Assembly (NCBI GenBank): GCA_963826715.1
Contig: CAWGYA010000008.1
Coordinates: 1,056,001-1,120,000, forward strand
Length of the DNA: 64,000 nt
Reading direction: 5' to 3'
Origin: Candidatus Bathyarchaeota archaeon
GTDB taxonomy: Archaea; Thermoproteota; Bathyarchaeia; Bathyarchaeales; Bathycorpusculaceae
The position numbers were made by a program, and so were the translations under genes. This document shows positions 38,685 to 41,977 of the stretch, one piece after another (the first letter of the stretch is position 1; each line of letters starts with the position of its first letter). Under the pieces are notes generated by a model. That model was not told the origin of the DNA, did not search any database, and saw only the letters and a program-made list of their open reading frames with translations.

Positions 38685-39248
38685 ATGCTACATTTAATCG
38701 AGGAATACGGTGAATATGTGGAAATCACAGGTTACTCTGAAGTGTCGTTCGATGTGGCAGAGGCGTTCTTGAAACTCAATCGCAACCAAGCTTCAATGGG
38801 CATTGAAATCCAATTCTTCGATGCGAGCTTAATCGCGTCTTGGCTGCACCTCTACTTTGCAGTTCAAAATGCAATTGTGGCTTTCAGGGGTAAAACCAAC
38901 GTTACTAAAAGTGTGGCAGTGGAGACGGTGTTGTATGCTGCTGCTGAGCGACAAATCCAGAAATCCATTGCAAAAATAGGCATAAAATCTCAAACCGAAA
39001 ATATTGCAGTTATTATAGTTGGAAAAAACTGTGAGTTAGTGAAGAGGATGTTGGCGGAAATTTCGGTATCTTTTGGTGGCAAGATTGATGAATCGGTTTT
39101 GGAGTTAACTAAACAGAAAATAGCGAAAATCCGTGAAGTATTCAATATATCCCAAAATGAGGTTGACTCTGCTACAAGAAGCTCCGCAGAAGAGGCGGTT
39201 GTGAACTTGGTTATTGAACGAGTAGCGTTATTGGCGACTCAGATTTAA
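38685..39248 (+). CDS. cgi121: KEOPS complex subunit Cgi121
   Basis: HLYFA, ETVLYAAAERQI, VIERVALL. Confidence 0.88.
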   Translation: MLHLIEEYGEYVEITGYSEVSFDVAEAFLKLNRNQASMGIEIQFFDASLIASWLHLYFAVQNAIVAFRGKTNVTKSVAVETVLYAAAERQIQKSIAKIGIKSQTENIAVIIVGKNCELVKRMLAEISVSFGGKIDESVLELTKQKIAKIREVFNISQNEVDSATRSSAEEAVVNLVIERVALLATQI

Positions 39249-40591: not shown

Positions 40592-41092
40592 TTATCTTCC
40601 TATCCATTTTTGGATGCCTATCCTCTTGAGTATCTTAAACAGTGGCCAACCTATGAGTACGCTTGCTATGATGTTCCCGAGGGCTACATAAACCATTGTT
40701 GCAAGAAGTGGTAACCCTATTACATAAGAGAGCATCCACCCAACAGTTACACCTAACACTACTGAATAGGCGATGCAAGTTCCAATTACCGTGAAGTCAT
40801 TGTTGGTTTTTTTGTAAACAAAGTAGACTACAAACGCCATTACAAAGGATGGTATCGTGTTTAGTAGGTCGATTGGGCCAAGGGGCGAAAAAAGGTTGGC
40901 GACGATAACGCCCAGGGTGTGACCAAGAACTCCAGCTATACCCAACAGAGGGACTGCTGCAAGCAATGAATCTGCAATTCTGACTTGAAGGGGTCCATAA
41001 GATATTCCTGGAAGGAAAATTACTAGTGCTGCATAAAGCGCAGCATATATCGAGATTAAAGCTAAATCTTTAGTGCGTATTTTCAAATGCAT
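40592..41092 (-). CDS. queT: QueT family transporter (queuosine-precursor ECF S component-like)
   Basis: AALYAAL, ISYGPLQVRIAD, G..VANLFSP.G..D; five TM helices; ATG 41092 after GGGAG SD. Confidence 0.85.
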   Translation of the reverse strand: MHLKIRTKDLALISIYAALYAALVIFLPGISYGPLQVRIADSLLAAVPLLGIAGVLGHTLGVIVANLFSPLGPIDLLNTIPSFVMAFVVYFVYKKTNNDFTVIGTCIAYSVVLGVTVGWMLSYVIGLPLLATMVYVALGNIIASVLIGWPLFKILKRIGIQKWIGR

Positions 41093-41160
41093 TTTCTCCC
41101 TATTCCCGGGTTTTATTTTTTGTTGGCGGAACGGGTAGGAGAACCACTCACCCGCCAATC
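41093..41160 (-). promoter_or_regulatory. Candidate pseudoknot riboswitch in queT-queC 5' UTR
   Basis: 7-bp stem UUGGCGG/CCGCCAA, loop complementary to the SD region, A-rich linker, TATA-like box at 41184-41191. Confidence 0.6.
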
Positions 41161-41332
41161 TGCACCATAAAGTTCCATACATACCTAAAAACATTTGTCC
41201 AACGAAACCATGCCTACCTGGTGTCTCTGTGGTTTCGGCGAAATCTTTAATTAATTCCTTAGAAAGATTACATGTTGCATCTTCCTAGTGGATGGCATTC
41301 CGCACAAACGGAGTTTTAGGGAGCATAAAACT

Positions 41333-41977
41333 ATGTCGCAAAATAATGTAGCTAGCCAACTAGTCCTTAAAGGAACAACAACAATTGGCGTTGTCTGCAA
41401 AGATGGCGTAATATTAGCCTCAGATACCCGAGTAACCATGGGTTTCTATGTCGCTCACAAATTCGGCAAAAAAGTCTACAAGATCGATGACCACATAGGC
41501 ATGACTATAGCAGGCACAGTGGCCGATGCACAACGTGTGGTTGATATTCTTATTGCTAACGCGCAACTCTATAAAGTAAACCTCAACCGCCCAATCCCAA
41601 TTCCTGCAGCTGCACGGCTTGTTGCAAATCTGCTGTTCCAAAGTCGCTACATTCCATTGGCAACGCAGGTTCTTGTAGGCGGTATAGACGAAACTGGACC
41701 TCATGTTTTTAACCTCGACCCCTACGGCAGTTTAACCGAGGAGAAAATGGTTTCCACAGGTTCAGGCTCCCCAGTAGCTTATGGAGTCCTTGAAGACAAG
41801 TATCGTGAAGGAGTAAGTATAGCTGAAACCCTGCCGGTCATCGCTAGAGCCGTGAATGCCGCTATGAAGCGGGATGTGGCAAGCGGTAACAGCTACAACA
41901 TCATCGTGATTGATAGCAACGGCTACAAAGAGTTGAGTGAAGAAGAGAAAACTCAACTTCTCAAAGTAGGAAGTTAA
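41333..41977 (+). CDS. psmB: Proteasome beta subunit
   Basis: Propeptide ending LKG/TTT, AGTVADAQ, STGSGS. Confidence 0.95.
   Translation: MSQNNVASQLVLKGTTTIGVVCKDGVILASDTRVTMGFYVAHKFGKKVYKIDDHIGMTIAGTVADAQRVVDILIANAQLYKVNLNRPIPIPAAARLVANLLFQSRYIPLATQVLVGGIDETGPHVFNLDPYGSLTEEKMVSTGSGSPVAYGVLEDKYREGVSIAETLPVIARAVNAAMKRDVASGNSYNIIVIDSNGYKELSEEEKTQLLKVGS

Follow-up and report, generated by a model that had tools for sequence, protein, structure and literature searches.

What does the short leader ahead of queT and queC do? The question arose from a 64,000-nt stretch of DNA (the window) from a Candidatus Bathyarchaeota archaeon (assembly GCA_963826715.1, contig CAWGYA010000008.1, positions 1,056,001 to 1,120,000), in which queT, the gene for a predicted transporter of 7-deazaguanine precursors, and queC, which encodes 7-cyano-7-deazaguanine (preQ0) synthase, follow this leader on the minus strand. 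An earlier note, made from the sequence alone, had read the start of the queT-queC mRNA as a pseudoknot that sequesters the Shine-Dalgarno (SD) sequence and responds to a 7-deazaguanine. The core of this reading, an SD-sequestering H-type pseudoknot that is probably a new 7-deazaguanine class, was supported by conservation, covariation, the spacing of a TATA-like box and the occurrence of the element ahead of queE. It is almost certain that the leader is a cis-regulatory RNA of the 7-deazaguanine regulon with a conserved pseudoknot, and it is probably a riboswitch that responds to a 7-deazaguanine by occluding the SD.

With the QueT protein as query, queT was detected in 35 of 41 related genomes, and 200 nt upstream of 30 queT loci of these relatives were cut out for comparison of the leaders. 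The same leader was present at 28 of the 30 loci; the two exceptions (L020 and L021) had a different, smaller leader. The common core reads GGCGG-GUGAG-(variable)-CUCCYAC-CCG-UU-CCGCC-(A-rich)-AAA-N-CCC-GG-(2-6 nt)-GGGAGG. It was nearly invariant even where QueT shared just 28-43% identity with the QueT of the window, indicating that the conservation exceeds what the protein explains. A covariance model built on this leader and holding its stem P1 only (R1) found matches in 93 genomes of a 151-genome sample of the window's class (in 72 of the 95 with a completeness of at least 90%) and in 28 of 151 genomes sampled across the phylum, and orthologous leaders were conserved in the class and outside it. 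Families outside the class with matches were f44 (9/15 genomes), f56 (3/3), f60 (2/2) and one more. Most matching genomes held one copy, and two or three copies were found in G091, G099, G129 and G154. A weak R1 match (L252, E 5e-5) lay ahead of an unrelated 214-aa protein, lacked the motif and was discarded as a false positive. A strict IUPAC DNA pattern was also scanned against one genome per species (185,579 species genomes) and returned at least 119 stretches. Among the matches listed, 34 were judged real because they had an SD, the tail A[ACU]CCC and AT-rich surroundings; every one was from an archaeal metagenome-assembled genome, mostly titled Candidatus Bathyarchaeota or Bathyarchaeia, with a few Methanomethylicota, Nitrososphaerota or simply 'archaeon'. 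The other 85, again among the matches listed, were in GC-rich bacterial contigs and had no such tail.

The genes behind the element belonged to one pathway. With an anchored regular expression, 134 distinct copies were parsed; this set leaves out loci from the later phylum search, the truncated copy L188, the degenerate copy L187 and copies that the expression did not match. The first gene 3' of these copies was queT in 127, a gene for a QueE-like radical SAM protein in two and a gene for an unnamed membrane protein of about 230 aa, resembling the S component of energy-coupling factor (ECF) transporters, in five. None of the 134 stood ahead of any other kind of gene. Pfam assignments of the first downstream open reading frame (ORF), made for 127 copies, were QueT in 117, radical SAM in two and none in eight; when three of these eight and the seven copies without a called ORF were re-read, all ten encoded QueT, one of them frameshifted (L181). 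The two radical SAM proteins (L067 and L079) scored best on the NCBIfam QueE models (E 1e-25 to 6e-31, below the curated cut-offs), and in L079 the QueE-like gene was followed by a QueC-like gene. A queC gene came next on the same strand in 53 of the 134 copies (47 of the 122 with at least 1400 nt available). The five 230-aa proteins had no match in Pfam or NCBIfam; hhalign aligned only their first helix with QueT (probability 22%), and the closest clusters in the ESM Atlas were those of 'ECF transporter S component' (score 0.94), no more than a lead. They form a candidate new family of 7-deazaguanine transporters. Two loci were damaged: a degenerate third motif copy with a broken P1 precedes a queT-like frame containing a stop (L187, G154:C281), and an intact motif precedes the frameshifted queT of L181 (G091:C89). 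These are decaying paralogues or assembly errors.

The leader begins with P1, for which a perfect 7-bp helix had been proposed in the window. On the minus-strand reading, all coordinates and pairings given in the note, this helix included, were correct. Among the 134 copies, the first pair of P1 was GC in 104, AU in 20, UA in three, GU in three and mismatched in four. The fifth was GC in 112, CG in 22 and mismatched in none, and pairs 2-4 were invariant except for two U.G. Compensatory changes therefore support P1 at pairs 1 and 5, and pair 5 was solely complementary although the strict scan pattern permitted any combination there. In total, 99.2% of the P1 alignment cells were paired. RNAalifold, applied to 100 sequences, returned P1 with an invariant G.U on top of it as the sole nested helix and no further conserved hairpin, alternative or anti-terminator. 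A second hairpin (CGGGU/ACCCG), previously thought to free the SD, did not survive the comparison: its five pairs were possible in 91 of the 134 copies, and all 22 copies with C at position 5 of P1 lost a pair without compensation, so it was rejected as a conserved element.

The loop of P1 was proposed to pair with the SD. This second helix has two parts, PK-a (CCG with CGG) and PK-b (the loop strand with the SD region), and it was examined in two alignments. Alignment A2 was made with the P1-only model, so it was not fitted to the pseudoknot, and used 100 of 128 distinct loci, 28 near-duplicates being left out by choice. When P1, PK-b and PK-a were taken together in A2, 92.0% of the cells were paired (85.1 +/- 0.5 in shuffles), 108 cells were doubly changed (42.5 +/- 4.6 in shuffles) and the covariation score was 0.244 (0.132 in shuffles); none of 500 shuffles reached any of these values. 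Sliding the partner by 1-3 columns left only 45-61% paired. Alignment A5, which was fitted with a pseudoknot model (R2) and hence leans towards the structure, gave 95.6% paired cells, 134 doubly changed cells and a score of 0.297, each reached by none of 500 shuffles. PK-b alone was 92.6% paired in A5, with compensatory changes on both sides at six of its seven pairs. Three pairs outward from the core U-A pair, 87% of the cells were standard pairs, of six different types. The mean RNAduplex energy of a loop with its own tail was -12.87 kcal/mol, compared with -11.10 kcal/mol for the tails of other copies (0 of 2000 permutations). Whole PK-b helices were also exchanged in some lineages: besides CUCCC/GGGAG, we found UUCUCC/GGAGAA (in the window), GCUUCCC/GGGAGGC, CACCUCC/GGAGGUG, CCUCCU/AGGAGG, CUUCC/GGAAG, UCCGAC/GUCGGA, CCACC/GGUGG, GCCCCC/GGGGGC and GCCCUCC/GGAGGGC. 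PK-b covered the SD in most copies. The loop:SD pairing was therefore supported by both alignments, by the duplex energies and by the helix swaps.

About 20 nucleotides outside the helices were nearly invariant as well (GUGAG, CCGUU and AAANCCC). The junction after P1 was GUGAG in 110 of the 134 copies, GUGGN in 15 and GUAGG in seven, and the segment from the junction to CCG was 6 to 17 nt long, so that the loop part 5' of CCG measured 11-22 nt with the 5-nt junction included. The dinucleotide before the 3' strand of P1 was UU in 128 copies, CU in five and AU in one, its second position being U in every copy. The linker L3 measured 7-15 nt, A making up 0.63 of it on average, in keeping with the A-rich linker described for the window. 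It ended in all 134 copies in AAA and one of C (84), A (27) or U (23), with an invariant CCC next and then, in 126, GG. From the start of P1 to the SD core there were 46-63 nt. The likeness to preQ1-I seen earlier in a GUGGUUC sequence did not hold up, this sequence being present in only three of the 134 copies. When mutual information was computed over all anchored positions, the two P1 pairs alone stood out, and no further tertiary pair emerged. As partners of the invariant tail CCC, the G run after P1 and the loop GGG were both rejected by eye, as those segments vary or change.

Several observations weigh against the pseudoknot or its reading as an SD switch. Single-sequence folding of the window leader was no better than that of shuffled sequences (z = +0.93; 161 of 200 shuffles were equal or better); the window sequence alone therefore proves nothing, and the case rests on comparison. 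The shuffle statistics in turn do not correct for shared ancestry, and related sequences can beat every shuffle. For this reason, the strongest evidence for the pseudoknot comes from the helix swaps in separate families. Part of the loop:SD complementarity could come from any CCUCC-like loop together with a conserved SD, but the covarying flanks and the swaps to helices unlike an SD argue against chance pairing of this kind as the whole story. PK-a was 96% paired and invariant (its 5' strand was CCG in 128 copies and CUG in six), so it is supported by conservation and not by covariation. A fourth and fifth PK-a pair were inconsistent (C:A 46, C:G 40, C:U 18, U:A 11) and were not retained. Five copies of a divergent variant (L019 and L198-L201) had no CGG, with AAAA in place of GG(N). 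In L256 and L257 (from G294 and G266) the 3' strand of the pseudoknot lay about 60 nt upstream of the queT start, and in these two, L183 and L197 this strand was GUCGGA(A), which is not SD-like. These four exceptions show that SD burial is not a universal read-out; their lineages must use another read-out or simply occlude the landing site of the ribosome. Finally, the 3' strand of P1 in preQ1-I riboswitches is preceded by UC or AC, the C of which pairs with the ligand (Kiliushik et al. 2024, PMC11625349), and the corresponding position was U in all 134 copies.

The predicted position of the element within the transcript was also conserved. In 133 aligned upstream regions, a promoter-like signal was seen: counted from the first nucleotide of P1, base composition peaks in A at -40..-36 and in T at -34..-29. 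The TATA-like box noticed ahead of P1 in the window thus keeps its spacing across the copies, which would place the element at the very start of the mRNA. With the usual archaeal distance from TATA box to start, the transcript would start a few nucleotides, about 4, ahead of P1. A look for transcript reads brought up 9 DNA metagenome runs from 5 studies and no RNA run. Two features speak for an RNA rather than a DNA element, namely the G.U pairs and an orientation that is fixed with respect to the gene downstream; a DNA operator was rejected because of these pairs and because the element follows the TATA signal. The 16S rRNA of the window's genome ends in ...GAUCACCUCC, so the loop strand of the leader mimics the anti-SD. 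In the window, the queT AUG is just 3 nt past GGGAG; an in-frame UUG two codons further on (41086-41084) is an alternative start with a more usual SD spacing and aligns with the start of several relatives. Several orthologues seem to use starts other than AUG, GUG and UUG, since ORF calling failed on seven copies.

The features of the locus are collected in Table 1. The genes queT and queC are probably co-transcribed. A gene for a THUMP-domain protein (39772-39245, minus strand) lies 3' of queC on the same strand after a gap of 147 nt and may be part of the same tRNA-modification operon. A homologue of CGI-121, a KEOPS protein, is encoded on the plus strand (38685-39248) and converges on the THUMP gene, their 3' ends overlapping by 4 nt. 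Upstream of the leader, the gene for a proteasome beta subunit is divergently transcribed.

Table 1. Features of the queT-queC leader and its genes. Coordinates are whole-window positions, and the leader, queT and queC are read on the minus strand; the last row lists proteins at other loci by locus and position.
Feature	Position	Strand	Remark
TATA-like box TTTTTAGG	41191-41184	-	starts 35 nt 5' of the first G of the P1 core
Predicted transcript start	near 41160	-	about 4 nt before the P1 core; placed from the TATA spacing
P1 5' strand UUGGCGG	41158-41152	-	conserved core GGCGG 41156-41152; pairs with 41129-41123
Junction GUGAG	41151-41147	-	conserved, unpaired in the model; its first G is possibly in an invariant G.U with U41130
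Variable spacer UGG	41146-41144	-	site where indels gather (alignments A1 and A2)
Loop UUCUCCUACCCG	41143-41132	-	complementary to the ribosome-binding site
PK-b 5' strand UUCUCCU (anti-SD)	41143-41137	-	pairs with GGGAGAA 41100-41094; duplex -9.9 kcal/mol
AC	41136-41135	-	between UUCUCCU and CCG
PK-a 5' strand CCCG	41135-41132	-	invariant part CCG 41134-41132; complementary to CGG(G) 41108-41105
L2 dinucleotide UU	41131-41130	-	immediately 5' of the P1 3' strand
P1 3' strand CCGCCAA	41129-41123	-	perfect 7-bp helix with UUGGCGG
A-rich linker L3 CAAAAAAUAAAA	41122-41111	-	ends in invariant AAA-N
CCCGGG	41110-41105	-	invariant CCC (41110-41108), then GGG; C41108-G41105 is the PK-a 3' strand
C41110 and C41109		-	unpaired; candidate ligand contacts
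AAUA	41104-41101	-	between CCCGGG and GGGAGAA
SD region GGGAGAA, PK-b 3' strand	41100-41094	-	covaries with the loop strand
queT start AUG	41092-41090	-	one nt 3' of GGGAGAA
queT	41092-40592	-	ECF-type S component, predicted 7-deazaguanine precursor transporter; Pfam QueT PF06177, E 1.1e-24
queC	40575-39919	-	7-cyano-7-deazaguanine synthase; Pfam QueC PF06508, E 1.5e-63; 16 nt past queT
Multi-pass membrane protein family of about 230 aa in place of QueT	L062:5327-6022(-), L178:1567-2262, L211:170-871, L214:1964-2650(-), L216:170-871		

Which compound the leader might sense was approached through the pathway genes of the same genome (G000, in which the window is C8:1056001-1120000). This genome is 96% complete and has, besides QueT and QueC, one tRNA-guanine transglycosylase (TGT) with a 552-aa frame (C7:258087-259061). 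Neither PTPS/QueD (PF01242) nor QueF (PF14489) was found in it. The sole match to a QueE query in this genome was an NrdG activase next to NrdD; at that locus (L240:36-2115, on C7), an ORF resembling the anaerobic ribonucleotide reductase NrdD is followed by the radical SAM activase. Because QueT, QueC and TGT are present and QueD, QueE and QueF were not found, the organism looks like a salvager, and the gene set suggests salvage of a precursor rather than de novo preQ0 synthesis. QueT would import a 7-deazaguanine precursor, QueC would finish it to preQ0 if needed, and the archaeal TGT would insert it. Since no QueF was found, preQ1 is not expected and preQ0 is the end product of the operon. 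Archaeosine is nearly universal in archaeal tRNA. preQ0 is its precursor, a salvage route for preQ0 is likely in archaea, and bacterial queT/qrtT genes are sometimes found behind preQ1 riboswitches (Zallot et al. 2017, PMC5372724).

From the architecture and these genes, we infer the following mechanism. The first ~70 nt of the queT-queC mRNA (41158-41090, minus strand) would fold into an H-type pseudoknot aptamer in which P1 and the loop:tail helix stack coaxially and the A-rich L3 lies along P1. The nearly invariant GUGAG, UU and AAA-N-CC would come together where P1 and the pseudoknot stack, and the 7-deazaguanine pocket would be built around GUGAG, UU and the tail CC at this junction. The ligand would most likely be preQ0, the base inserted by the archaeal TGT for archaeosine. 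When it is plentiful, its binding would lock the pseudoknot and bury the SD and the start region, and less QueT and QueC (or QueE and QueC elsewhere) would be translated; when it is scarce, the 3' strand would be free and the ribosome could bind. In the window, a buried GGGAGAA would block initiation, giving end-product feedback on both uptake and synthesis. On present evidence, the leader is likely to be a new structural class of translational OFF riboswitch for a 7-deazaguanine, for which preQ0 is the best candidate. That the ligand is preQ0 specifically is only somewhat favoured.

A riboswitch of the same architecture with another ligand is an unlikely alternative, be it 7-carboxy-7-deazaguanine (CDG, the substrate of QueC), guanine or another purine, the archaeosine base, or a compound with no evident link to the pathway. 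The ligand is deduced from gene context only, and QueT may import CDG for QueC in a genome in which QueD and QueE were not detected; the position that sets specificity in preQ1-I is U here and not C. However, the element also precedes queE-queC, for which feedback would logically come from preQ0, the common end product, whereas burial of the SD stabilized by CDG would switch off the enzyme that consumes CDG. The invariant C residues of the tail could also pair with a guanine-like face.

A translational attenuator that works without a ligand, as a constitutive pseudoknot or an RNA thermometer keeping queT and queC expression low, is less probable still. Pairing of the SD with an anti-SD would by itself lower translation. 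But a simple occluding hairpin would need neither the roughly 20 near-invariant nucleotides outside the helices, retained in families with QueT proteins of about 30% identity, nor the topology of a pseudoknot in which L3 is A-rich, and the association of the element is exclusive to one pathway. A protein-binding leader, in which the pseudoknot is the site of autoregulation by, for example, a tRNA-modification or RNA-binding protein, appears very unlikely. Archaea have many RNA-binding regulators, but no gene for a candidate regulator accompanies the element: its neighbours vary, and the first gene is always queT, queE or that of the S-like transporter. A kink-turn has a 3-nt bulge, tandem G.A pairs and, on the non-bulged strand, GA next to the C helix. 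The junction is unfit for such a site of L7Ae, the strand that enters the 3' side of P1 being CCG-UU and not GA in all 134 copies, and a kink-turn leader was rejected. The size, topology and gene set of the leader match instead the bacterial small-molecule riboswitches of the same pathway (PMC11625349).

If a preQ0 riboswitch is indeed what the leader encodes, a widespread aptamer confined to archaea would add a fourth fold to a ligand family that serves as a model for recognition of small molecules by RNA. It would show control of translation initiation by RNA structure in uncultured Thermoproteota and would offer a handle for inducible expression in archaea. It would also flag genes for 7-deazaguanine transporters, including the unnamed membrane protein family of about 230 aa. 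The element marks many of the archaea that carry it as salvagers of deazapurine precursors.

Comparison with known RNA families placed the leader outside all of them. In a cmscan search against 4227 Rfam 15 families at E <= 10, window positions 40900-41400 and 41080-41175 gave chance-level matches to unrelated families only. preQ1-I (RF00522), preQ1-II (RF01054) and preQ1-III (RF02680) gave no match at this threshold, RF00522 not even on the shorter, 96-nt segment, and the leaders of six relatives matched no Rfam family at E <= 1. The earlier note had left the choice between an enlarged preQ1-I variant and a new class; the Rfam result and the invariant U at the specificity position favour the new class. 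Three preQ1 classes, all bacterial, are listed in a review (Kiliushik et al. 2024, PMC11625349). Archaeal riboswitches are represented, in the part of the survey used here, only by those for thiamine pyrophosphate and fluoride and by rare flavin mononucleotide, Mg2+-I and guanidine-II examples, none of them for the 7-deazaguanine pathway (McCown et al. 2017, PMC5473149). We found no description of an archaeal preQ0/preQ1 riboswitch, a 'preQ1-IV', a Bathyarchaeota riboswitch or this motif, although supplementary tables or subscription papers outside the scope of the search could hold an unnamed mention. There is a slightly better than even chance that the leader is a fourth structural class of 7-deazaguanine riboswitch, sensing preQ0 and not preQ1, and the first riboswitch class known only from archaea as far as we found in the literature. 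The same, only mildly favoured, reading makes the element widespread, among Bathyarchaeia-like archaea as well as in further families of the phylum, where it would govern both salvage (QueT and the new ECF-S-like transporter) and synthesis (QueC and QueE).

A second leader of about 40 nt was found in genomes of the window's family ahead of a different QueT subfamily (L020:1453-1503, L021:1457-1503, L271, L272, L274, L275, L277 and L278), and one of its carriers, G170, was without the large motif. Its sequence is (G)GUAG-UU-UCCG-UAUAUAAC-CUAC(C)-UUAAAAAACC(C)GG. Like the window leader, it has a loop CCG and the tail AAAAAACC(C)GG, but its P1 is 4-5 bp long (GUAG/CUAC), its L1 is short and its L2 long. 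With preQ1-I (PMC11625349) it shares UU after the 5' strand of P1, AC before the 3' strand and an A-rich tail. It had no Rfam match, and no covariation support was obtained, as there was almost no sequence variation among the copies.

Among the bacterial classes, preQ1-I (types I-III) resembles the leader in plan: it too is an H-type pseudoknot with a short P1, an A-rich L3 and SD nucleotides in the second helix, it regulates genes for queuosine/7-deazaguanine synthesis and transport, and it binds preQ0 as well as preQ1 (PMC11625349). That the leader is an enlarged, homologous member of the preQ1-I family with the same pocket is nevertheless highly improbable, for the shared topology, the A-rich L3 after a P1 of 5-7 bp and the shared genes are set against the failure of RF00522 to match, the absence of UC/AC before the 3' strand of P1 and loop proportions that are reversed, L1 being long and variable and L2 only 1-2 nt in the leader, whereas L1 is short and L2 longer in preQ1-I. 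The leader is also larger, with the extra invariant blocks GUGAG and AAANCCC; its second helix, in two parts (3 + 5-8 bp), buries the SD completely; and it is archaeal, whereas the relevant part of the review names bacterial phyla only (PMC11625349). preQ1-II (the COG4708/queT motif) resembles the leader in lying upstream of queT, in being about twice the size of preQ1-I and in holding the complete SD in a Watson-Crick pseudoknot helix beside the presumed pocket; as described in the part of the review that treats it, preQ1-II controls translation only (PMC11625349). However, the same source gives it an HLout pseudoknot with four helices (P1-P4) and restricts it to Bacillota, whereas the leader supports P1 and the pseudoknot helix only. 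The conserved sequence blocks of the two are unlike, and the variable insert of the leader has no conserved hairpin. preQ1-III shares the ligand family and a pseudoknotted aptamer, but its expression platform is far from the pocket (PMC11625349), whereas the SD of the leader is within the pseudoknot. The element would thus work like the preQ1 riboswitches but is a member of none of their three classes, and it is so far restricted to archaea of one phylum.

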